A stretch of DNA of 50,406 nt, counting the filler, from Basidioascus undulatus (taxonomy: Eukaryota), in the NCBI GenBank assembly GCA_000826855.1. It is 3 parts of 3 records of this genome, joined end to end, with 100 filler letters (N's around TTAATTAATTAA, not from the genome) between each part and the next. Parts side by side here need not be neighbours in the genome. Positions count along the whole stretch, not along the records: positions 33,709 to 50,406 come from JTLS01000573.1; 2 more parts are not named here. One strand, 5' to 3'. Of this stretch, positions 21,150-49,275 are shown one piece after another. Under the pieces are notes generated by a model. The model was not told the origin of the DNA. It did not search any database and saw only the letters and a list, made by a program, of their open reading frames with translations. A program made the translations under genes and the position numbers. How positions within the stretch are numbered: the first letter of the stretch is position 1; every line of letters starts with the position of its first letter.

Positions 21150-21967
21150 ACGCACCTTTTTCGCCTCTTGCAGCTTGCGCACAGCCTTGTTCATGTCGTC
21201 CTGGGTGATGTACTCGCGGTCGGCGCCGATGGCGTTCATGCCCGCGCCTCGGTGCAGACTTTGCGAAGGTCCGCACCGCTGAAGTTCTCCGAGAGCTGGC
21301 AGCCCACACAGGCTATCAACAAACGCACTATATGAAGAGCAGTGAAGGGGAAAGTAAACTCACCCTTGCGATCGCCTCCAGATCGAGCTCGCATTCCTTC
21401 TGCGTACGCTGGCATGGATCTTCAGGATCTGTTGTCCGATCGTCAGACATCCCATAAGCAAATGACCGCTATGAGCAATGACTAAAGCAACTGGATACGC
21501 ACCTCTGCAATCGAGCCAACTCATTCGGCAGCGGGATCTCGATCTTCCTATCCAACCGTCCAGGGCGGAGCAGCGCGGGGCCGAGCGTGTCCCGCCGGGT
21601 CGTGGCCATGATAACCTTGATCTTGCCGAGGTAGTCGAACCCGTCCAGTTGGTTGATGAGCTGTTCTCAGCCGTTTCAACTATTGCGTCAGGCAGAGCAA
21701 AGAGACATGAGAGGACGAGGGAAGGGGAAGAGGAGGGAGCGGCCGTACCTCCATGAGCGTGCGCTGGATCTCACGGTCCGCGGAGGTACTGTACCCTCGC
21801 TGAAACGCCGCCCGCCACTGGCATCGATCTCGTCCATGCAGATGATGCACGGCTCGTGGTCTTTCGCATAGCCGAACATTTCCTGGTCTCTGAGTACGAG
21901 AGATGCAATCTGACAAAAGGAGAAAACGAAGGCGTACGCGGACGAGACGGGCAGATTCACCAATATA
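21150..21967 (-). pseudogene. RPT4: 5'-truncated, intron-retaining fragment of 26S proteasome AAA ATPase Rpt4 (subunit 10B)
   Basis: [134 protein letters not shown]. There is a 5-bp duplication frameshift at ~21786-21794 and further frameshifts. Walker A and the N-terminal half are absent. Confidence 0.9.
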
Positions 21968-22093
21968 CTGAAAGAGTACAGGCTGCCGCCGGCTCTTGTT
22001 CTCGACTCCCATCATCGCCAGCTCCCGCAACCCTTCGCCTCCTTCACGCTATACCTTCGCCTCTTCTTCATCCATATCTTGATTCAGACCGAC

Positions 22094-26133: not shown

Positions 26134-28335
26134 CTATGCCGTCTGCGCCGGTCCTCCCGCCCGCGCCTCAATCCACTTCTCGTGCTCGCGCTCCTCGCGC
26201 TCGAGGCGAGCAAGCTCCTGCGCGTACCGGCTGGCAGCGCGGATGCGAGGGCCGAACCGGTAGAAGACGAAGGGCAGGAACGCCATCGGCGTCGCGATCA
26301 TTGCTAGAATGCACGTCGCCCATTGGTATCCGACTATATGAGGGAGCGAAATATGTCAGCGGACATGCCAGGGCTCGATGAGTAGGGATTGATTTGGGCG
26401 AGCGTACCGTTCTGGTAGAAAGGCACGGCGACCAGGGTGAGTACACCAGAGAGGATCTCGCGGAAAAGCGATTGCCCAGTGATAGCGCTCGATGCCATTA
26501 CGCCGTACGACTCGACGGTGTAATCCGAAACGACAAGAAAGACTGGCGGTTCAGAAACGAGCAGATGAGCATCGGATCATACCGACCACAACGCGCGTGC
26601 GAGGTCTCGCGACTTACGAACATGGCTCGAAATGCCGAAAGCGCAGAGAGCAAACATTGACGCGAGGTAGTTAACTGAGGGTTGCGAAGACCAGGCGAAC
26701 CAGTAGAGCGAGACTGGGAAGAGGATGCCAGCTGGAGGATCGAGTGAATTAAACGTAGTGAGGGTATCTCCGAGAAGCATCCTCACGCACCGACCATACC
26801 CCAGAGCAGCTTGTGCTCGGGCACGTCCTTCTGCCGCGTCTTTTGTTCGATGCGGAGCGTCGCGCGCCGCTGGAAGTAGAAGAGCGGCATGGCGATGAAG
26901 AAACCCACTTGCATCGCGATGAAGACCAGGTTGATGTTGGGCTCCGTGAACCCGTACTGCTTGTAGATAAGCGGCGCAGACTCGACAGTGAGGTACTGTA
27001 GAGGGTGCAAAGGGGATCAGAGCCTTGCCCGGCAAAGGAAGACAAAGATGTAACGCACGATGATGCCGTAGTTGAGCCCGTCCCACAGACCGAAGAGGAA
27101 GACGATCGGCTCAGTCGTGAGCATGACTGGTCCCCATGGTCACCCACTGGTCAGCCTCATTCCGTTCAGGCCTAGCGCCCATCCCAGTCTTCACTCGCCG
27201 ACAGGCCTCAGCACCGTTTCCTGCACGATCTCCTTCACGCTCCTTCGCCCGAGCCGCTCGTGCAACGCCCACGCCTGCAGATCGCCATGCTTGCGCGCCT
27301 TCTTCGCGCGGCGCACGAGCAGCGGTCCGCCGCGAGTCTCGGGAACGAAGAGCAGGAACAGCACCATCAGCCCGAACCCGATGATAATGCCGATCCAGAA
27401 GATCCACCGCCAGGACAGGCGGTGCACGATATATCCTCCGCTATGCGACGAGAGATAACACTTCAGCACAAAGGAAGTCGAGGAAAGATTGGGGTCGAAA
27501 AGAAGACGCACAAGAGCGGGCCGAGGATGATGCTCTCCGCCGCGAGAGCCCAGAAGTTGAGCGCCCACAGGCCAACGACGTCCGTGCCACGGAAGAGATC
27601 GGGGATGTTGCAAACAGAGTTGAAGATGGGCGAGGCGAAGAAGCCAGCGAGAAAGCTGTTCATCGATGTCAGTCCGTCTCTCGGAGGAATAGTGTGCTCG
27701 ATCCGCTTACCGGAGAATCGCAAGGGTGGCTATGTTTTGCGCCAAAGCACAGCCGACAGCGAGGACGTATGAGACGACCATGCATATGGTGAAGACATAC
27801 TTTCGACCATAGTCCTGTTGCCACAGTCGGTGAGCGTCCCCCATCCCTAGGATTGTGGAAAAGAGGAAACGCACCTCCGCAAAGGGCGTGAGCACCACAG
27901 GGCCGAATCCGAACCCAAACAGGTACAGCGCGAGAGGTAGCTTGCTCTGTACTGCAGGAATACCGAACTCCTCCTGGACGTGCGACGAGGCCGGCGCGAA
28001 GATGGAGCTCATCATCGTCACCCAGAGCATCTGCAGGCCGCTATCGGTTCGCAGTCGCACCTCAGCATCCCGCAGGGTTTCGCGAGACGCGTCAGGGACT
28101 TACACGATGAAGACTACAAAACATTTCCGGGTATTCGACCAGTTGAACGGATTGCCGGCATCATTGGGCTGTTGATGAATCCGAACTCCTCTCAGCGCCC
28201 TTCCCTCCTCCGAGCTGACAGTCGCGTGCCACTCACCTGCCAGTGTACCAGATTCTCCGGATCGCCCCCTTCGACTTCCTTCTCTTGGAGCTCCTCAGCT
28301 ACGATCGTCTGAGTGGGCGAAGGGTCGGCCTGCAT
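26134..28335 (-). CDS. MFS transporter, DHA1 (drug:H+ antiporter) family
   Basis: ENLVHW..DAGNPFNWSNTRK; SSIFAPASSHVQEEFG; GFGPVVLTPFAEDYGRKYVF; ILRFLAGFFAS; WRWIFW; FVPETRGGPLL; TEPIVFL; PEHKL; SLYWFAWS; ESYGVMASSA; FYRFGPRIRAASRYA; stop TAG at 26134-26136. Confidence 0.92.
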
Positions 28336-31895: not shown

Positions 31896-33608
31896 CTAAT
31901 AGGCCCAGCCCATAGCGTCGTTGAGCGCGGCGGTGTACCCCTCCAACTCGAGTCCCTCGTCGCCCGGCGCAGCGCCAGCCGCGTCCGCGCCAAACATCCA
32001 TGCGACTGAGCCCTCCGTCTGGGCTAGGTTGAGCGTGAGGTCGAGCGAGTGCTCAGGCGCGGTGGGGGCGGGGGCAGGCCAGCTGTCAAAGAGGAGGGAC
32101 GGGTCGACCGCGGGCGCCTCGCCGCGCTCCCAGACCGAGGCGTCGCGCTCCCACGCGGCCTTGACGAGCTCCGCGGGGGAGGGGATGGCTGACGGGGCGA
32201 AGGTCGGGGGCGCGGAGGGGGAGGAAGGGTCGGAGGGGGCAGGAGGAGCGGGGTAGGATGTGGGAGCGGGGACGTCGACTTCGAGGCCCAGGGGGGGAGG
32301 GCCCCACGCGAAGTTGCTTAGCTCCAGGTCGGCGGGGGGGGCGGACGATAGCGGTGGGGGCGGGACGAAGAGCGGCGTCGTGTCGATGTGGTATTGCGCG
32401 TAGAGGGCTCCCGAGGCGGACGGCGGCGGAGGAGGGTGGTCCTCGGCATGCGCTGCGGCGAGCTGGCTCAGAGTGTGGAACGCTGCGAGGTGCGGCGGGG
32501 GCGAATCGCCCGGCGCGGACGCGGGGGGGAGGTCAGCGAGGACGGATGGTCGCGGGCCGGGTCCGCCCGCGGAGACGGGGTAGCACTCGGGGGGGAAGTC
32601 GAGCACGGGCGGGGGCTTGCTCGCGCGCTTGCGGGTGCGGGTGCTGCCCGACGAACCAGACGGACTGCGCGCAGGCGAAGGGGAGCGTGAGCGCGAGCGG
32701 CGCGCGGACGACTCGGACGGCGGGGGTGCAAGGTGCGTGGTCGCTTCCGCCTCGACGCGGATGGCGTCCCGCTCGATCGCAGTCGCGCCCGCGGCGAGGC
32801 GTTCCGCGATGAGCTCGCACTCGCGCTCGGTCGTCGCGCGCCCTTCCTCCGGCATGAGCCGCCGCCGCCGGCGTACTTGCCCCGGGCGCACGCTCGGCTG
32901 GTAGCGGTACTCGGGGTTCGCGGCGCTGAGGGAGGAGGAGGTCGGGTCAGAGAGGAATGTGTGCAGAGGAAAAGAAGGGAACAGGGAGCTCACCGATGCG
33001 CCTCCTTCTCCCGCTCGGCCTGCTGCTCGAACGGCGCGCGCTCCGGGGGCGGCAGAGCCTTCCACATGAACGCGGCGATCTTGGAGATGTTTCGCTGGTC
33101 GTTCTCAGACGACCGCTCAGCGAGCCCGTTTTCAATCACGTGTGACCTGAATCCCACATCGTCAGTGCCAGTTCCTACTCGAGAGGCAGTTTGGGGGACG
33201 CACCGGTAGATGATGAACGCGTTCCTGGGGCGCTTGACGTGCCCCTCGGGAACCTTGCGCGCGTGGCTCGCCTTGCTCTTGCGCTTGCTGGGCGCGCCAA
33301 GGGAGGCGGACGAGCCGGCGTCGGACTCGGACGGGGTAGGGGCGGAGGGGGACGCGCTGTCCCATGAGGAGGCGGAGCCGGCGGTGCTGGGCCGCCAATC
33401 GTCAGAGGGCGAGGGGGAGCGGTGGCTCTCTGCCGGGGAAGGATACGAGGAGGCTGCGGAGGAGGGGCGCGAGGGGTGGTTGAAGGACTCAAGCTGCCCT
33501 GCGGAGAAGTTGGTGAAGAGCGTTGGGGTCGGGGGGAGGAGCGCGAGCAAGGGAACGATCGGTGCTGCAAGGGAGGCGAAGGAGGCGGAGGTGGGGGGCG
33601 GGCTGGGG
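31896..33608 (-). CDS. MATA/SOX-type HMG-box transcription factor; 5' end lost in the gap
   Basis: SHARKVPEGHVKRPRNAFIIYR/SHVIENGLAERSSENDQRNISKIAAFMWKALPPPERAPFEQQAEREKEAHR/AANPEYRYQP, followed by a long Pro/Ser-rich tail ending AMGWAY*. Two introns lie in the HMG box. Confidence 0.9.
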
Positions 33609-33708
33609 NNNNNNNNNNNNNNNNNNNNNNNNNNNNNNNNNNNNNNNNNNNNTTAATTAATTAANNNNNNNNNNNNNNNNNNNNNNNNNNNNNNNNNNNN
33701 NNNNNNNN
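33609..33708. other. Assembly spacer (44 N + TTAATTAATTAA + 44 N)
   Basis: Same 100-bp construct as at 16764. Confidence 0.97.
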
Positions 33709-36441
33709 CCCCGTCCCCGCCCCCGCCGACCCATATCCACTGAAGGAACTGCTTGCCCCTGAGGTACCATCGCCGTAAGATCCCCAGTTTCCATCGCTAC
33801 CGCCTCTCCCTCCACCGTATTTACGGCCGCGCCAAGCTGTTCTGACCGAACGGGGAGTAGGAGGAACGAAGGGTTTCGGCGGCGGCGGGATGTAAGGAGA
33901 GCCCCAACGCAAAGCTTTTGCTTTATCTACAGGTCCTTCACGCCAGCATACAACCGAATCGAAGGCTCTGAGTGGTTGATCGTAGCCCTGTAAGGATTGT
34001 CAGAAAAAGGACTAAAATCAAAGAAGCCAGTCAGAAGACTTACGACACAGAACCGTCCGCAGTTCGGTTGCTTCCCGTCGAAAACGTTCGGGTCTCGGAC
34101 GCCTACGAGCGCCCAGCCCGCAAGACCGATCGAACCAAAGTCGGCGGGTACACCTTTGTGTCCAAGCGGTATACTACCACCATCAAACGCCGATCTGCGA
34201 CGACGCTTCGCCGACTGGTGCTCGCGCCCGGCGTGCGCAATGGCGAAGGCCTCAACATTCAAGACAAGGATGCTCGAGTGCTCCGAAGGGTACGATGCTA
34301 GGTTGCCGTGTCGATAGAAGCGTCGATGGCGGATCCGGCGGACGAAGTGCTTAATTTCGTCGGTGAAAGACGATGAGAAGGGTCGGAATGACGAGTAGGG
34401 AGTCTTGTACGTCTTCCACCATAGTTGCGACGTGTCTCCGAAAGCCTTGTCTAGACATAAAAGTGTATGTGAGAAGGCGCCATGACTTCGAAAGCAAAAA
34501 CGTAACGTACTGAAAGTTTCCTCCTCGACATGTGCCTCATGGTCGATGTACCTATACCGGCATTCATATTCGCGGAAGTCTCTGTGGATTGTGATGATGA
34601 GAGCTAGGTCAGACTTACAAGACAGGCGCCCTGACGCACCCGCGAGTGTAGCACTCTGAATCGCGCAAGTACTTATTCCCTATGAGCTGGTATGTGTGCC
34701 ATATGAGGTCGATGTCGAGAGTTGGGACAAAGAAGCGGTGATGGCGCCGATGAAGGAAGAGGAAGTGGTAGTAGCGCGAGATAGACTGAGCGATCGGAAA
34801 GGATGCGTGGGACTTGTCAAGCCACCCGAGGGAGAACGCTTTGTTGGTGAAAGTCGAGAGGCGGAGGACCTGTTGTAACAAGACTCTGAGTGAGCATAAG
34901 TCTAGCACAAAACAGAAGCGAACAGCATCATACTGCGTCAAGAGATCGACAGAGAAAGGTGTAGGGTCGCTATAAGCGGACAACATCCTGAGGAGCCTGC
35001 TGAAGAAACGTTTGAGTGACAAGTACAGCTTCAGCAAACCGGCGGCATACCTTGGCTTGTACTTTATCCATACTTCTTCCGGTGAGGTATGATCCTGAAG
35101 CTGAGGTTTGAGGAATGGCTCAAGGACGTTTCTCGTCCACTGTTTTTGAATGGCCTGCTTGGGTTGGGCGTAACCGGAGGTATACGAGTACGAAGTACCC
35201 CCTTCTTTCTGTGCTCGGACGATGTTCGCGAGGGTTTCGCTTGCCTCGGTCACGCTCGACTCTACACGCTCAAGCGACCAGCCGAGAAAGTCGCCGACCG
35301 AGCGCCTGTTAGGTGCGACCTCGATGAACGGTTGGATGAGAATCGACGCGAGGCGCTTCGGATCAACCGGATCCTTGAATCTGGTAAGCGGGTCAAAGAG
35401 AGTGCCGCTTGAAAAGGTAGAGGGTGAGCGTTACCGTTGAGTTTGAAGATGACAGCCGCATAGAGCCTCACGCAAGAGTCTTCTCCCCGTTATTCAAGCA
35501 ATCCGCCACGTCACTCGAGAACTTTCCGACCGCTAGGCTTTCACGCTTGTCAAAGTAAGAACGAAGTCAGTAGTGATGTTAGTTGGAGCTTAAATCAATT
35601 CAACGCACTGTGATTGCCAAACCGCATGCGTTGCAGGTTGTGCTGAAGCCGTTCTGGCACCAGCCTCGGCCTTCGACCTTGCCGCCCAGAAGCTCGACCG
35701 GAGGCTCAAGCCAAGGGACCATTGTCCTCTGACCGCACCGCGGACATTCGAGAGCTCGATGGTGCTGGCAGCCGGGGTAGATCTCGAGCGGGATGTACGG
35801 CGTCGATGTCTTACTCGTCCAGAACGCTACTTGATCCTTCGTCGGCCAGAACTGGAGCGATACAGGCTCAATATGCGATACCTGCGGAGTTTTCAGCGCA
35901 TCAGCGCCTGCACAAATTTCTCGGACTCTGAGAGAAGAAGCACGATTCGCTCCAGAGGCATCCCGCCGATTGCGTCCAGCTTCGAAAACTTGCGCTCCGT
36001 GTCTTCCGCGTACGCCCACGGGTTGAGCAGGTAGGCGTGCCACACGAGGAGAACATCCAGAGGCGGGATGGCGCGGTCCTCGAGATCTCGGCGATGTCCA
36101 CCTGGCTTGACGATATGCTTAAGCCAGAGTTCGAATCGATGTACGGCCTGCTGGAGGAACACGCGCCAGCGTACAGCGGCAGGCGAGTCCGAGTCGCTGG
36201 GAAGCGGTGTAGAGACGGAGCGCTCGATTGCATGGAAGGCGGCGAGGAGGCGCAGGTGCGCGAGGACAGTAACGCCACTTATGCCGATATCGGTACCGTA
36301 CGATTCCCGTTTTGTACTGACCCAGATGTGCTTTGGTACGTCGGCGAGAGACGGATGGTCGGTTAAGAAGGACGCGAACGTAGACGACAGTGATTTGTAG
36401 CGAAGTTGCGGTGAGGGTGAGAGCTGGTCTGATTCAGGCAT
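33709..36441 (-). CDS. DUF1399 / glycine-rich domain-containing (GRDP-like) protein; 3' end runs into the gap
   Basis: HLRLLAAFHAI; RWRVFLQQAVHRFELW; IPPLDVLLVWHAYLLNPWAYAED; LECPRC..GWCQNGFSTTCNACG; ISRYYHFL..FFVPTLDIDLIWHTYQL; YIDHEAHVEE; Gly-rich C-terminus. Confidence 0.85.
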
Positions 36442-37169
36442 GACGATTATGATGACCGTTGAGGATGGCAAGTGATGAGGAGAGTAAGGGACCAAAGAGC
36501 GAGTCATCTTGAGCTAAGTATCGTCGACAGGCCACGGCAAACGAGTCACGTTGTCTTCGACGCTCTGCACATTGCGAGCGCCTGACCGGTCACAAAAGAC
36601 GACGCAGTACAGGGTCCGTGAGCATTTACACAGCCTCATTGCTCTTCATATATCGAGGTACATAGCGTTTTCCTTATCCTCGTTCGGACATGCAGCCGAG
36701 TCGTGTGATGAACGTCAGGCCAGACTGCCGTCGAAAGTCGTTGGCGACCAAAGGCGCAGAGGACTGATAGTCAGCAACCATATTACGGTCGCACCTTGGT
36801 GTGCGAATCGAAATCACCGTTGCAAGGCGCTCCTTTAACGTAAGATGAGTTTCGATGCACGGTGTAGACAACGACCCGCTCGAACGAGTCGCTCGAGTGG
36901 TGCCAGCTCTGTCACATGAAAGGACCGACTCCTACTCCGGCCTGCCCTCTTGCGCTATATGTGCGCCGCGCCTCATCGTTCAACGTAGAAAAAAGCGCCC
37001 TACAGTTAGCTTGAGAAAGATCTCGCAATGAGGCGCCCGCTTGTATTCCTTATCACTTGAATTTGGCACTTCCAAGCCTTCGTTCGTTCCCTCGGACTAA
37101 TTCTCCTGACTGAGCGCCTTATCATTTGGCGGTCAATTTGTTCACCTAGATGTCAGACTTTTCTCTAAG

Positions 37170-37530
37170 TGTCACGAATGCATCCCCGTCACTCCCACCT
37201 TTCACCAAGCCCACTTCCGGTCGTGGACAGCCTTATCTTGCACAGCCTTCACCTTTGTCTCCTACACTGCCTTCGCCACGGCCTTCCTGTGCTCCCCATC
37301 ACTGCCACTCCAGCACACAGCCCTTTGGTAGCCTATAAAGAATGCCCACTTGCCCTCCCCTTGCTCCCCATCCGGTCTTGCTCTTCTACTCCTGTCATAG
37401 TCCTCGCTTAAGCCCTCGTCCTAGTCCTCGTCCTAGCCTTGTCCCACGCCCCAGATCTATTCTTGCCAACGCGAACCTTTCAGCCTGTAGCCCCCGCTGC
37501 GGTCTGCCCCATCTAGTCTGATTCCTGACA
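37170..37530 (+). mobile_element. Solo LTR (361 bp)
   Basis: Begins TGTCACGAATGC and ends ...TTCCTGACA (TGTCA/TGACA termini). Internal TATAAAGAATGCC. Homologous in inverted orientation to 37738-38042. No clear TSD. Confidence 0.7.
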
Positions 37531-38042
37531 CCAGTCGTCCTTGATGCACGATGGCCTTGAGGTTGGACTTCCTTTGGAATTGCTGCGAGGATTGTCCGTA
37601 CGGAGGGTTGGGCCATATTCGAACAAACACTTGTTGTATTTCAGCCTTCGTGGACTCGGGGTATAGGTTTTGCGAAAAATTTGTTTATAGGGGTGTCGAG
37701 AAGCGCGGGGTCGAGACCGGGAGTTCTAGCTACCAAATGTTGCACGGTGGTGGGTAGGCACAGTGCAACTCGGGGGATGCAAGGCGAGGACGAAGAGCGA
37801 GAACTGGGCCGTGTAGAAGAGCAAGATCGGATTCAGATTTCGAGCAAGGGAAGGGCAAGGAGGCATTCTTTATGGGTTACCAAAAAGGGCTGTGTGCTGG
37901 AGAGGCAGTGAGAGAGCACAGGAAGGCAGTGCAGGAATCAGGAAGGCGTGCAGGAAGATAACGGAAGGTAATGCAGGAAGATAACGGAAGGCAGTGCTGG
38001 AAGATAACGGAAGGGAATGTGACAGGGGAAGCATTCGTGACA
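37531..38042 (-). mobile_element. 5' end of an LTR retrotransposon: LTR (38042-37738), PBS (37735-37722), leader and start of a gag-like ORF
   Basis: The minus strand reads TGTCACGAATGC...GTGCAACA, then TT, then TGGTAGCTAGAACT (TGG-initiated PBS, resembling the complement of initiator tRNA-Met). ATG GCC CAA... at 37616 is cut off by the other LTR at 37530. GGAAGATAACGGAAG occurs three times inside the LTR. Confidence 0.75.
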
Positions 38043-40150: not shown

Positions 40151-43100
40151 AGCGCGGAGACTGGAGTTGTACCTTCCATGGCGTTGTCGCCCACCTCACC
40201 TCCCGGCTCTGCCGGCGGGGTCTGGCTCCCGCCCGCGATTGCCAAGCTCTTTTCTCCCACGGCCACCCTCTCGCCTCCTTCCTCACCCAAACAGCAGGTC
40301 CCGGCTCCCACGTCCGGGGGTCTTGCTAAGGACGTGCAGGGGAGGATTCTGAGTTGGCGGAGCGATGTCAGCGGGGATGCCTGAACCGTCATTCATTTCA
40401 CGTTGCCATTCCTACTCTGCTGGCTTGATGCCCGCAGCTTAGCTAAGTGTTGGTGCCGCTAACGGGCACGGAGGGTACAGGTGTGGTAGACCACATGGGG
40501 GATGCGAGGGCAGGGGGTGCAACGGCGGGGGATCAGAGGGCAGGGGGTGTAAGGACAGGGCTGCAAGGACCGCCCCGGGAAGGGGGGGGAAACTACATGG
40601 GGATTCGATGCCCACGACGGGGGGGATGAGGGTTTGAGCGATGGTGTCCTGGGTTTGACGGCGCTTTCTTTCGTTGCGAAGGGCAGTCTTGATGCCACGG
40701 AGGACGACGCAGGCGTGATGCCGGGGATGGCATGGTCACTGCCGAGGGAGATTTCGACGTCGAAGGCGAGGGCCTCACCAATCTTGCTGTAAAGGCAGGA
40801 GGTCTGAGTGTGGCATAAGAGGCGTCCACACTTACATATTCTACCCTGGCCTGTCTTGCTGCAGCACCAGCACAGGGCAGTATTGGCATCTGCATGGGGA
40901 CGGCACAGAGCAGGGTTGACGAGGGGGGGCTGGAGCATTTTATGTAGCATCCCCAGAGTCTCGTGCACTGCAAGGGTGGGAGCCTGAAGCTGTGTGCATG
41001 CGGTGCATGCAAGAGGGAGTGCAAGGATGCGGTAGACAGGCTGTCCAGAAAATGGGGAGAGTGACAGGCAGGGCAGTGGATGGAGTTGGCTGGAGCGGCG
41101 CGGACAAGGGCATGAGAGTAGGGGCCAAGGGCATGGTGATCAAGACACTGCCGAGGGGGAAACAATCTGTGATGATGGCTGCGATTTAGGTCTCACGCGA
41201 TATTTGGACACAGCACTGCTCCGCAGGTTTCAGGCCAAGGGCAGATGCCACAGGCAGGGCAGCCCAGTGGCTTTGTTGGGACTGACTGGATTGGCCAAGA
41301 ACAGTACTATCGCAACCCTGAGTACATGCATTCATGGCGGGTATGTTGCTCGGGACCATGCAGGCAACGTCTGTTGACAGTTTCATGCCCGAGCGGATGC
41401 GCGAGGCTGAGAAGGCGCCTGTGTCCTATGTCCAAAACAATGTGCACTGGATGGGCACCGCCAATGCGGCTGCGGTGAATATGCAAAACGAGATTAGAAC
41501 GTCTTGGTTGAACAGCCGCATCTATTCGCACAACCGTTTTCTGGAAGAAAAGAATGCTGGCGGTGCGTTGGGCTATTTGGTGCGTTACAAAGTGCGCGAG
41601 ACACCGCCCCACTACATGGCAGCCAGTGCGGGCCACAGCGTGTCACGGCAGCAATACGAGGCCACGGCCACCCAGATTGAGGCGATTCCCAGCCGTCAAG
41701 ACAGAGACCGATACCAAGCTGATCGGACTCAAGGCGGTGGTCACTCTATGCTCCATAGCACCGATCTGGTTCATGACCAACATGAAGACGACATCGGATG
41801 CGGTCAAGCCCATTGAACAATACGTGCGCACAACCAATGCCGAGTTGCGGCATCAGGGCCTTCCGCTAGCGTGGAATATCGAATACACGCCCATCATGCC
41901 ACCCACACGGGGAGTTTCCTTGTGGCATTCGCAGCTGTGATTATGGGCTGAAGCGGATAGTCACGTGCTGTGAATTGCTGAGCTTGGGGTTCGCCTAACT
42001 CAAACACGGTGGTACTACTGAGGTTGTGCAGCCGCGCGCGACGATGTGTGGCATGACATGTAATGGCATGCATGTTACTTGTTACGCATGCCTCATTTGT
42101 CTGTTACTTAGGTTAGCCCACCTATGGGTGGCAGCGGCGGTATCTCCCAGCACTTCAATCCAGCCCACCACGCAAACATGACGATATGCATCGACCACAT
42201 CCTGCCTGTGAACGCCTCACTGCTGTCCAACGTCGGTGTCGTCTTCGCGCTTCGGACCCATGCGCGAGGTCCGGGCTGAGCTGTTCGGCATGGACGGGTG
42301 CAAGATTGCGTCCGCTCAGAAGGTGTAGAACAGTCCTGAGCGGACGGTTGAGAATCACTTTTCAAGTGCTTCTTGAGTCACGCTGGGGATGCAAGTCCTG
42401 CAGCAGTCCTCGTCGGGCTGCTGTCCATCCCTTCTGGCGTTCCTCCCTTGCTCTCCCCTCCTCGCACGCATCCATTCCGTCCACCCCATCCCCGCCACCC
42501 CCACACCCTCCTGGCCTGCTCCGCCCCGCCACAAGCCTGCCCGCCCCGGTCTCAACCTCCCCGCTGCCCTCCTCGCAGCGAAGTAAGCGTGCATGGCGCA
42601 GCAGATTGTGGAGCAGGAAATGCGGCTCCTTGGCCACCTGGCACCTGGGATGCTCAAGCTGGAGAAGAAGATGATGATTAGATGGCTAAGAAGAGTGAGT
42701 GAGGAGATCGACAACGGCGAGAAGGCGGCAGAGGGTAAGAGGTCCAAGACACCCGAGAAGGAGAAGGAACGGTTGGATAGGGAGCTGGATGAGGGTAGGA
42801 GAGGGTAGTGCCGAGTTGGAAATGGTTAGCCCGCGCCCGCACCGACATCTGCACCTGCTGCAGGGGCGAGTGAGGACAAGGAGGGATTGGGCGAGATGGA
42901 ACGGTTGAGGAGGAAGTTGGCCAGGTTCAAAGTGGTGGTGCGTCACTCAGGTTGGTCCGTGTAAGGGTTGCATTCACTCTTCCCTGCATCCTACCCTAAC
43001 AGCTGCCGCTCTAAGCTTTCTGACTGATGTCCAAGGCACAAACAGAGCGTTGAACTGCATCTTGCCACGGGCAAGGGTCGGCGCTGCCCGAAGCTAAAAT

Positions 43101-43452
43101 GCACACAGGTTGCCTCGTGGCCTTTGAGGCCCCAGGCCCAACTGTCCAAATGGTTGCCTGCTTACCCTATGATAGAACATTTACGCGCCTCGGCGAAATC
43201 GCCCGAGGCCGGCGCTAAGTGTTAATGAAATACAGACACGAAAACATGCATATGCTCGCCAAGCCCGAAGTTCTTAATTTGGCAGCATAGGATAGTGAGG
43301 TGTTTATCACCTTGTTCGCACCGCATGACTCTGTCCTGACATGATCTGCAACGATGTCTAACACTCGCCTAACGTATAAGAGCGGGCAGGTCCAATTCTC
43401 TTCAGTCAGGTTCCACACACCTTTTGGTTCGCGTTCTTGATCAAACACAAGA

Positions 43453-44156
43453 ATGTACGCCCTTGAATACTTCTTCCTCGCCATCTCCGCCGCATCCCTT
43501 GGGACCGCCTCCCCCGTCGCTGCCCCCACCGAAGAACCCACGATGGGCGCACTGGCATTCCACAACGGCGTGCAAAAGGACCTCGTCAAAGACGGCTGGG
43601 GAACAGCGACCATCTGCTCCGTCTACTCCGCCGACGAGACCGTCTGCTTTGACTCGGAGGACGATCACGTCGCCTACCACGCCCGTCGCAACAACATCCC
43701 CATCGAAGACGTCCTCAAAAGGCGAGGCACCGGTCTCGAGGAACGCGCGAGCCCCAGCTGCACCTACGGCGCATGCTGCGTGTATCAACTCAAGGCATTC
43801 GAGGGACGGAGGTTACAATTCTTTTCGAGCGGAGAACATACGCTGGGACAGTACGACTTTAGGGACAGGACGACGGGTATTTACAACAATCGGAAAATTT
43901 ATGGTTGCACTTTGGTTGATTACCGGTAAGTTGTTCTTTGTTTTGTTCTGACTATAACAGCTGTGTCATTTCTTTAAAAAAATGTCGGTGGCATATCTCC
44001 TCAGTTTGCTGACTTTCACGCTGTTTTTTTTTCAGGGATTGGATGCCCGACCCCGAATTCATCTGTCCGCTTGGGTCGGCATACGGCGATCTCAGCAAGC
44101 AGAGCTATACTTACGGTGGAAACTGGGATAACATGGCGGATCGCGTTGACATGTAA
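43453..44156 (+). CDS. Secreted 197-aa protein; C-terminal domain resembles actinobacterial peptidase inhibitor I36 / beta-gamma-crystallin-like proteins
   Basis: Exons 43453-43925 and 44036-44156 (intron GTAAGT...GCTGAC...TTCAG). Signal peptide MYALEYFFLAISAASLGTASP, pro-region ending KRRGTGLEER, then SPSCTYGACCVYQLKAFEGRRLQFFSSGEHTLGQYDFRDRTTGIYNNRKIYGCTLVDYRDWMPDPEFICPLGSAYGDLSKQSYTYGGNWDNMADRVDM*. TATAAG at ~43375. Confidence 0.8.
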
Positions 44157-48286: not shown

Positions 48287-48785
48287 GCGAGGCTGGTTGT
48301 AAGCTGGCGAGGACGCAACACCACTCTGGACATCGCATGGTTTTACTGCGTGATTTTGCTGTGCTTGAAACTTGAGCGTCGCAAACATAAACGCTAATCG
48401 TCAATCCCTCTCCTAGGGCTGAAAGTCCCTGCGGCTCGGTCTCAGCAAGATGCAGAAACATTGCCGTCCCCATCTTCCCTTTCCGCCTTCTCAACTGTTC
48501 CTGGAAATTGTGTTGTCCACTTGGAACAATTTCCACCGACGACGTTTGGGAAACTGACGCTGTAGGAACCACGGGCCTGTCAATATTGCGTTTCGGTACT
48601 GACTGCCGCCCAGCGGTGTTGGTAAGTCAGCAGTGTGATGGTCCATCATTCAATATTCGCCCACCTTCATTAAAATCGGCTAGCACATTGACCGTCGATG
48701 CATGCTTGCCGCTCTTTTTGCTGTTGTCTTCTTGCATTCAATTTAAGGACTACGTTCTCTTTAACAAAACTAACCAGACAGACAG

Positions 48786-48866
48786 GTCGTGTTGGCGCAA
48801 TGGTAGCGCGTCGGTTTCCGATTTCCAATGTACCGGAGGTTGTGGGTTCGAGTCCCATGCACGACT
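48786..48866 (+). tRNA. tRNA-Arg(CCG) with ~9-nt intron (48822-48830)
   Basis: Acceptor GTCGTGT/GCACGAC, D arm GCGC-AATGGTA-GCGC, anticodon stem TCGGT/ACCGG with loop TT-CCG-A, T arm GTGGG-TTCGAGT-CCCAT, and a TTTT Pol III terminator directly after. Confidence 0.85.
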
Positions 48867-49275
48867 TTTGAGCCTTCCTGGCACTGGCTGAACCATACTT
48901 TTTGCTAACGAGAGCTCCAACGATCCCAACACGCCCGCTGTTCTACGTCGACGCTCGCACTTTGGCCCGGTTGCGGAAGCGCCTGCCCGCCCGCTTCTTG
49001 CGTCCGCTGGTTTCCGAAGACTTCCCGACTGCGCCGAATCTGACAACATTACTCTGTCCAGGCAGCTTAAGGTGATCATCCTTTTACAAAAAATTATTGT
49101 AGCTCCACCTTGCCAGCCTACCGATATTGAAATCCACCAGTTTGGCGCCATCTTTGTCGTGGAGAGGTCGCACGATCACATGTCAATGCAGCACACGCGA
49201 TCTTCCCGCGTACTCGCCAACGCTTGCACTTGAACCATCATCATCTCGCTCCTCGGACTACGCGCGCCAACGAGC

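Follow-up and report, generated by a model that had tools for sequence, protein, structure and literature searches.

A two-exon gene of Basidioascus undulatus for a probably secreted protein of an otherwise actinobacterial I36-type family, with a candidate Kex2-type site at the domain boundary

A two-exon gene in the genome of the fungus Basidioascus undulatus (GenBank assembly GCA_000826855.1) encodes a small protein whose detectable relatives are two-module proteins of Actinomycetota and chytrids, and the question raised by this locus is how such a gene came to stand, intact, in this genome, and what its product does there. The gene is located at positions 43453-44156 (+) of the window, i.e., the whole stretch of 50,406 nucleotides (nt) that was analyzed; residue numbers refer to the spliced product of 197 amino acids (aa). 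An earlier reading made without database searches (the sequence-only reading) had seen here a candidate for a transferred bacterial gene with a domain of the peptidase inhibitor family I36. The explanation which probably holds is that of an intact fungal-type gene for a secreted pre-pro-protein, belonging to an otherwise actinobacterial family, which arose through the entry of a Streptomyces-like gene into a fungal lineage and is matured by a convertase.

The spliced coding sequence comprises 594 nt with a single terminal stop. Exon 1 (43453-43925, +) begins with the ATG at 43453 and holds codons 1-157 plus CG, two bases of codon 158; the spliceosomal intron (43926-44035, +; 110 nt) lies in phase 2 within the Arg158 codon; exon 2 (44036-44156, +) contributes G, the last base of codon 158, followed by residues 159-197 and the stop TAA (44154-44156), and corresponds to the second Greek-key half, with the terminal residues GGNWDNMADRVDM. 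The intron carries the 5' signal GTAAGT, CTGAC about 25 nt before its CAG acceptor, and a GC content of 35.5%, compared with about 57% in the flanks. The splice was checked against a profile of length 206 built from the 127 non-eukaryotic rows of the family. The spliced product aligned with this bacterial-only profile at 171.6 bits, unbroken and free of frameshifts (residues 10-196 on profile positions 16-201 of 206), whereas the scores were 126.9 bits for exon 1 by itself and 29.5 bits for exon 2 by itself (E 2.7e-11 in a one-sequence search). The exon junction VDYR/DWMPDPE is colinear with VDYRDNMPDPE of Streptomyces, and 22 of the 40 residues of exon 2 are identical to those of the Streptomyces homologues L002 and L004. 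Since removal of the intron restores colinearity with the bacterial homologues, the splice model is validated; the clean two-exon frame reported before is thus confirmed by translation, splice signals and end-to-end profile alignment. No paralogue of the gene was found in the window by tblastn.

Database searches used the exon 1 product (P0001, 157 aa) as query, the spliced form being used only in profile and script comparisons. An exhaustive phmmer comparison with 1.84 billion representatives at a cut-off of E<=1e-3 yielded 94 homologues (18 at E<=1e-10), the best with an E-value of 2.2e-19 and 44% identity, and the alignments span nearly the whole query, beyond the I36 part. The Pfam family Inhibitor_I36 (PF03995) was matched by 88 of the 94 at E<=0.01, with 85 reaching the gathering score; three others had no match at all, and three are repeat proteins and probably spurious. 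The eight actinobacterial loci examined all pass the same gathering score, and the family named in the sequence-only reading was the correct one. The profile also matched exon 1 of the window gene on its own (E 0.005; residues 98-149 on profile positions 3-52 of 69), but with 17.2 bits, short of the gathering score of 21.1, which tells against the assignment; in most members, the window protein included, the match ends near position 50 of the 69. On the strength of the alignments, the window protein is a member of a two-module family composed of a conserved N-terminal module (N-module) and an Inhibitor_I36 domain. Single-domain I36 proteins of 117-122 aa, which lack the N-module, were observed inside the family tree in Allokutzneria and Lentzea (L031-L033), a placement suggesting that the N-module can be lost; in one family member, P0017 (410 aa), the complete two-module unit is duplicated in tandem.

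The protein begins with a probable signal peptide (about residues 1-20; 43453-43512, +), which was recognized by eye from the hydrophobic core FFLAISAASL and the small residues SLG/GTA; the homologues likewise begin with hydrophobic leaders. The N-module (about residues 31-80; 43543-43692, +) consists of two beta-hairpins plus a helix and contains W49, A52, C55 and C65, which are invariant across a 70-sequence alignment; it matched no family in Pfam or NCBIfam, and for six family members NCBIfam had no model. It is followed by a flexible linker with basic sites (43717-43746, +), in which the KRR (residues 89-91; 43717-43725) and LEER (residues 95-98; 43735-43746) pointed out in the sequence-only reading are both present. 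The first part of the I36 or beta-gamma-crystallin-like domain (residues 99-157 plus 2 nt; 43747-43925, +) includes C103, C109, GRRLQF and FRD. Cysteines occupy positions 55, 65, 103, 108, 109, 152 and 168 of the product. Regarding the I36 part, C103, C109, G118, L121, L131 and F136 are conserved in at least 90% of the 70 sequences, and C103, C109, G118, R119, L121, Q122, G127, F136, R137 and D138 are invariant in an 11-sequence alignment (A2). All family-invariant residues are retained in the window protein, those of the N-module (W, A, two Cys) and those of the I36 domain (two Cys, G-R-x-L-Q, F-R-D) being colinear over the full length. The motif string quoted before is likewise present, except that its spacing was off by one, seven rather than six residues separating GRRLQF from the next Leu. 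The "pro-region" was not added by the fungus, but is a conserved folded module that Streptomyces proteins also carry.

The fold was addressed with AlphaFold2 (AF2) models. For the chytrid homologue P0003, a model based on an alignment of 90 sequences gave a predicted local distance difference test score (pLDDT) of 90 and a predicted template modelling score (pTM) of 0.81. Its comparison with the PDB by Foldseek yielded 19 matches at E<=1e-3, and each of those listed (clostrillin, Ciona crystallin, hahellin, nitrollin, Protein S and spherulin 3a) is a beta-gamma-crystallin domain; their target template modelling (TM) scores are 0.59-0.78 over about 87-102 columns. Clostrillin (0.75; E 3.5e-5), Ciona crystallin, Protein S (0.78) and spherulin 3a lie between 0.71 and 0.78, and the family profile matches beta-crystallin B1 by sequence (E 7.9e-4). 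According to the model, P0003 has a double Greek-key, beta-gamma-crystallin-like fold, and the crystallin-like fold proposed earlier is borne out for this homologue. The exon 1 product, whose model lacks the last 40 residues of the protein, reached a pLDDT of 87 and a pTM of 0.76. Within it, residues 1-20 have a pLDDT of 53-62, residues 31-80 one of 95-97 and residues 31-90, with four strands and two helices, one of 93-97, followed by a drop to 62 at residues 91-100, i.e., at the linker from KRR to LEER. This truncated model had no significant match in the PDB (best E 0.14), a result unfavorable to the fold assignment for the window protein itself; because of it, the N-module is also without a recognized solved relative in this search.

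The taxonomic distribution bears on where the family comes from. A look-up of 20 representatives returned six chytrid proteins, five actinomycete proteins (three Streptomyces, two Nonomuraea) and nine without a name, and a profile search named four more bacterial members (two Actinoplanes, one Streptomyces, one Crossiella), so that nine out of nine named bacterial proteins are from Actinomycetota. A scan of bacteria and archaea (one genome per species, with one family motif taken from 11 closer sequences, and thus a motif-biased sample) placed 36 of 36 bacterial loci in the same phylum, in Streptomyces, Saccharopolyspora, Streptosporangium, Amycolatopsis, Actinoplanes, Allokutzneria, Lentzea and Kribbella, plus one metagenome-assembled genome; the actinobacterial connection drawn in the sequence-only reading is supported. 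The six chytrid proteins come from four species of the Spizellomycetales and Rhizophlyctidales: Powellomyces hirtus (KAI8918432.1, KAI8918409.1), Geranomyces variabilis (KAJ3165459.1, KAJ3174849.1), Thoreauomyces humboldtii (KAJ3021664.1) and Rhizophlyctis rosea (KAJ3039441.1). No other eukaryotic member bears an organism label, and as far as the rows carry such labels, the eukaryotic distribution is patchy.

The trees were unrooted, and the window protein is denoted WIN in them. A quick tree of 134 rows, from which L013 and ten proteins were left out, grouped WIN with the six chytrid rows (97 in the Shimodaira-Hasegawa-like approximate likelihood ratio test, SH-aLRT). A careful tree of 50 rows recovered the same group with a support of 95/90 and Rhizophlyctis basal within this fungal clade, which was sister to a six-row Streptomyces clade (99/99), the union of both receiving 93/86. 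For a second careful tree 53 redundant, truncated or very long rows were dropped, leaving 81. The free search on these 81 rows was suboptimal, because constraining WIN to the chytrids raised the log-likelihood by 10.2 (p 0.67 in the approximately unbiased (AU) test), and under LG+F+G4 the constrained arrangement was better by 18.3 to 18.9 log-likelihood units. The tree and identity data fit a descent of the fungal clade from that Streptomyces subclade, with the chytrid copies diverging faster, and a nesting of the eukaryotic sequences among bacterial ones is favored by the 50-row tree. A Streptomyces-like actinomycete gene would then have entered a fungal lineage, whose descendants would be the window gene and the six proteins of Spizellomycetales and Rhizophlyctidales; signal peptide, small disulfide-bonded N-module, flexible linker and I36-type domain of beta-gamma-crystallin fold would have been inherited together from the bacterial family. 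In terms of what had been proposed before, the origin from a bacterial gene is probable, WIN being grouped with the chytrids in two of the three trees and this clade being sister to a Streptomyces subclade in the 50-row tree, but a private, direct transfer is not supported, given that four chytrid species hold relatives; regarding the phylogenetic check, nesting is favored (93/86), but the un-nested tree was not rejected.

Several results weigh against this placement and its direction. In the careful tree of 81 rows, the sister group of WIN consisted of six Streptomyces rows (97/95) and the chytrids stood apart, and the AU test rejected neither arrangement of these rows under LG+F+G4 (p 0.70 for WIN with the chytrids, 0.30 for the other). 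With 50 rows, WIN joined to Streptomyces without the chytrids was worse by 9.4 log-likelihood units and not rejected (p 0.24), and an un-nested fungal clade was worse by 5.9 units and not rejected either (p 0.39). Overall identity is higher to Streptomyces L004 (75 of 165 residues) than to the chytrid P0003 (56 of 150), and the same is true of the I36 domain (53 of 100 versus 33 of 91); nine unique residues are common to WIN and the Streptomyces clade versus five common to WIN and the chytrids; and WIN is without the C-terminal gap of about eight residues present in the chytrids. Organism labels are missing for 83 of the 134 tree rows, and because the trees have no root, it is from taxonomic breadth that a direction from bacteria to fungi is deduced, the actinobacterial side having at least nine genera, with more than 80 clusters at 50% identity, compared with four chytrid species plus the window genome.

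The 81-row placement, the identities, the nine unique residues, the missing gap and the AU results would agree with a capture of the gene by the window lineage straight from this Streptomyces subclade (that of the L001-L005 or P0008 type), separately from the chytrids and with the Arg/LxxR site arising twice, driven in both cases by the demands of the fungal secretory pathway. We regard such a separate transfer as possible but rather unlikely: its likelihood was the lower one in every comparison (by 10.2, 18.3 and 9.4 log-likelihood units), WIN stands with the chytrids in two of three trees, and the shared junction R-A-x-x-S-C, together with the other four residues unique to WIN and chytrids, would require convergence. 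An ancient, vertically inherited fungal beta-gamma-crystallin family, with the likeness to Actinomycetota due to deep homology or convergence, would agree with the un-nested tree, with leads from a protein atlas (Ascomycota secreted-protein clusters at 0.84-0.86, and one cluster with PF03995 in 11% of 187 members), and with the listing of PF03995 among the cysteine-rich small secreted proteins of Tricholoma matsutake in the relevant portion of PMC6980582. There were, however, no fungal relatives other than chytrids among the labelled matches of the exhaustive phmmer search, identity to Streptomyces is 45% over the whole two-module length, and the bacterial side has the far broader spread given above, so this history is very improbable. 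The descent from a single Streptomyces-like gene, common to the window gene and the chytrid proteins, remains the preferred one. Among the matches listed in a literature search on the chytrid case, no paper joined Spizellomycetales, horizontal gene transfer and Actinobacteria.

What the fungal lineage may have added is seen best in the linker. Seven eukaryotic rows were compared with 126 other rows at positions -5/-6 relative to the first Cys of the I36 domain. Arg was found there in seven of seven eukaryotic rows versus 15 of 126 others, LxxR in six of seven versus two of 126, and dibasic KR or RR in three of seven versus one of 126; in the sister Streptomyces clade none has a linker Arg, LxxR or dibasic site. 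The junction of the window protein reads LEER/ASPSC, and those of the other eukaryotic members LDAR/APSSC, LDAR/APNSC, LAKR/AASAC, LARR/AAPSSC, ARRR/APSSC and STPR/APYSC. At P4, the Kex2 protease favors an aliphatic residue such as Leu, and KR, RR and LxxR have been used to find Kex2-processed pro-domains (K2PP), as stated in an excerpt of PMC8528282. LEER has Leu at P4 and Glu at P2 and sits in the sole flexible stretch of the model, and the KR/RR/LxxR motifs (residues 89-91 and 95-98 of 197) are found in the first half of the protein, upstream of the mature domain. The comparison suggests that the linker became a cleavage site in the eukaryotic members. LEER, which had been called a fungal-style processing site, is upheld as a plausible one of Kex2 type, with Arg kept in all seven eukaryotic members and cleavage predicted from sequence. 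This eukaryote-only feature is the strongest argument for the processing proposed before, but it also reframes the idea: what the fungi contributed would be the candidate cleavage site, not the pro-region.

Two observations speak against processing by such a protease. The sites of P0003 and P0005 carry Asp at P3, a residue called unfavorable for Kex2 in the same excerpt, and K2PP pro-domains are described there as mostly free of secondary structure, whereas the N-module is well folded, as its pLDDT values indicate. If the processing reading is correct, the signal peptide would direct the protein to the endoplasmic reticulum, a Kex2-type convertase would cut after LEER (R98) and possibly after KRR, and a double Greek-key domain of about 99 residues (A99-M197) would be released for tight target binding outside the cell; the role of the N-module would be to assist folding or to act as a pro-domain.

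Bacterial contamination of the assembly was considered as a source of the gene and was ruled out by the intron and the eukaryotic neighbors. The GC content at third codon positions (GC3) of the gene is 0.71, compared with 0.64-0.92 in nearby host exons and 0.84-0.92 in the Streptomyces homologues; within the gene it is 0.78 for codons 1-97 (signal peptide, N-module and linker) versus 0.63 for codons 98-197 (I36 part). The window also carries coding pieces of PP2C, RanBP-type zinc-finger, HMG-box and GRDP-like proteins plus a tRNA-Arg. Its intron, a GC3 resembling that of the host, and the presence of host genes and a tRNA alongside show the gene to be integrated into the host genome. Spliceosomal intron, host-like codon usage and the linker Arg (LxxR, KR or RR) site would all have been gained after the transfer.

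The surroundings had been described as a transposon graveyard with decayed long terminal repeat (LTR), HNH and long interspersed nuclear element flanks. This description is not sustained: no family of reverse transcriptases, integrases, RNase H, HNH or other endonucleases was found in 279 window frames scanned, and no LTR-like long direct repeats were found in 36-50.4 kb. The frames comprise 58 long ones from the whole window, 84 of at least 65 aa from 38-50.4 kb, 35 of 40-64 aa from 41-46.6 kb (scanned at E<=1) and 102 of 95-149 aa from 1-38 kb. In the scanned frames there is no recognizable gene in the 12 kb around the gene, and a word-indexed search of a protein collection with exon 1 gave no match, the gene being apparently missing from the searched protein collections and therefore probably unannotated. 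These two results, together with the long terminal branch of the window protein (1.3-1.6 changes per column) and weak fragments of other genes elsewhere in the window, would suit a relic that is silent or in decay, in surroundings with few genes, and whose open frame is a leftover. Such a relic is improbable, however, as both exons are open and colinear with the family profile to the end without a frameshift, the splice signals are canonical, and every family-invariant residue is kept; moreover, a TATAAG that may be a TATA box, read from the sequence, lies at 43375-43380 (+), 73-78 nt upstream of the ATG, and the start context ACAAGAATGT is good, with A at -3.

Regarding the remainder of the window, this stretch of about 56% GC is remarkably poor in recognizable protein domains, as judged from the 279 frames. 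Apart from the gene itself, the domains recognized are those of the PP2C, RanBP-type zinc-finger, HMG-box and GRDP-like pieces; a treble-clef zinc finger and DUF7455 were matched below threshold, and fragments of MFS_1 (27710-28099, -) and AAA (21691-22011, -), both weak, may represent decayed genes. A multi-exon PP2C-type phosphatase gene (1-1950, +) runs off the left end, with Pfam PP2C matched by two frames (474-1070 and 1348-1950); a word-indexed search among longer proteins gave no relative of its N-terminal piece. At 31896-33652 (-) an HMG-box frame (E 5.4e-10) is followed by a low-complexity frame of 73.6% GC rich in Pro, Ala and Ser, and a run of N (X in translation) occurs at about 33.6 kb. 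Two adjacent frames at 34615-36513 (-) each match the C-terminal part of GRDP-like PF07173 and represent either a tandem pair or two exons of a single gene; in the protein atlas, the cluster closest to the GRDP-like frame is eukaryotic, most commonly Ascomycota (score 0.93). A tRNA-Arg (CCG) of 83 nt at 48785-48867 (+), detected by ARAGORN and Rfam (51.1 bits), is the sole RNA family match in the window. Repeats observed are an inverted repeat at 37324-37884 with arms of 43 nt that are 88% complementary and 475 nt apart, and a G-rich tandem repeat at 40497-40556 (+), about 3 kb upstream of the gene, with a period of 15 nt and three overlapping copies.

What the released domain does was approached through the known inhibitor of the family. 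SMPI, the Streptomyces nigrescens metalloproteinase inhibitor of MEROPS family I36 (PDB entry 1BHU), is a single-domain protein not known to have an N-module, and by the title of a 1998 report by Ohno et al. it is reportedly a double Greek key of the beta-gamma-crystallin-precursor type. It is named as the founding I36 inhibitor, active on thermolysin, pseudolysin and griselysin, in a passage of PMC9002140. SMPI was not retrieved by sequence from the PDB with exon 1, with the family profile (E<=10) or with a single-domain Allokutzneria member (E<=10), and the window protein thus bears the Pfam name of the family of SMPI but shows no direct likeness to it. By analogy with SMPI, the domain may inhibit secreted metalloproteases, which is offered as a tentative possibility; a wall-binding antimicrobial role, ranked after it, is unlikely. 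The genomic neighborhoods of actinobacterial homologues weaken the case for an inhibitor, as neither a peptidase neighbor nor a conserved partner was found in eight loci (143 frames).

Other observations in these loci are an ECF-type sigma factor gene on the same strand as the I36-family gene and about 1.1-1.2 kb upstream of it in two Streptomyces loci (L007, 1094-1702; L012, 1037-1678), and a GH18 chitinase with CBM_4_9 and fn3 as a divergent neighbor in a third (L003, 876-2741).

The yeast killer toxin WmKT has the same fold as the crystallin-like domain, and the Ca2+-binding microbial beta-gamma-crystallins have a motif, N/D-N/D-x-x-S/T-S, in two copies. By eye, the corresponding residues of the window protein are R-D-R-T-T-G in the first and D-N-M-A-D-R in the second Greek key, and thus partly degenerate, and R-D-x-x-S-S, the consensus of the family, stands opposite N-D-I-V-S-S in the alignment with Ciona crystallin. 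The mature domain could accordingly be conceived not as a protease inhibitor but as a killer-toxin-like or wall-binding antimicrobial, or as a Ca2+-dependent binding protein. This would be in line with the Foldseek matches, which are microbial beta-gamma-crystallins rather than SMPI, with the chitinase beside the Streptomyces homologue, and with the beta-gamma-crystallin or WmKT type of double Greek key as one among 18 orphan candidate-effector families that occur in more than 80% of 20 fungal species (PMC10462633, in the section concerned). It is doubtful all the same, since no WmKT, SKLP or AFP1 was among the Foldseek matches listed, the chitinase is a neighbor in just one of the eight loci, and the Ca2+ motif is non-canonical here.

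Transfer of genes from bacteria to fungi and secreted proteins of I36 or beta-gamma-crystallin fold are already known, and the locus opens no new category. Its value is that of a clean worked example, in which a bacterial-type gene has an intron and a eukaryote-only Kex2-type site at the domain boundary, the nearest relatives being one Streptomyces subclade and soil chytrids, from the same habitat. If confirmed, it would provide a testable case of a foreign secreted protein adapting to fungal processing and would draw attention to an uncharacterized two-module actinobacterial family of more than 80 clusters; no paper on the function of this subfamily was found in a literature search by the names PF03995 and Inhibitor_I36. 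A further-reaching version, in which a folded bacterial N-module was made cleavable by LxxR/KR in the linker, in a non-chytrid lineage, and the gene was captured twice by fungi or passed from fungus to fungus, is decidedly unlikely; if true, it would be a natural experiment in refitting a bacterial secreted protein to the eukaryotic secretory pathway.

Among known systems, the fungal candidate effectors of beta-gamma-crystallin or WmKT type are likewise small, secreted, double Greek-key proteins; no sequence link to them was found, the detectable relatives being the actinobacterial and chytrid two-module proteins. The K2PP effectors SnTox3, ToxA and SIX1/4/6, as presented in part of PMC8528282, have a signal peptide, an N-terminal part with KR, RR or LxxR at its end, and a small cysteine-stabilized mature domain, as is the case here; unlike theirs, the N-terminal piece of the window protein is confidently folded and bacterially inherited, with only the linker flexible. 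With SMPI, a secreted actinomycete protein, the window protein has the Pfam family name in common. The chytrid proteins share the two-module architecture and, ahead of the I36 domain, the same Arg (LxxR, KR or RR) site with A-x-x-S-C after it, but their overall identity to the window protein is 31-37% (45-56 identical residues of about 150 aligned), and their second Greek key is shortened and diverged, with a gap of about eight residues that the window protein does not have. The actinobacterial proteins annotated as 'peptidase inhibitor family I36 protein' (P0008 = WP_389438918.1 from Streptomyces sp. NPDC002886, and L001-L005) agree with the window protein in architecture over their entire length, with a leader, an N-module containing W/A/C/C, a linker, and an I36 domain with C..G..C, GRxLQ, FRD and GG.WND.AD. 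With these it shares 39-45% of about 165 aligned residues, the identity in the I36 domain being 53% (L004), and the window gene differs from that Streptomyces clade in its intron, its eukaryotic-style leader, its GC3 (0.71 versus 0.84-0.92) and its LxxR/KRR linker.

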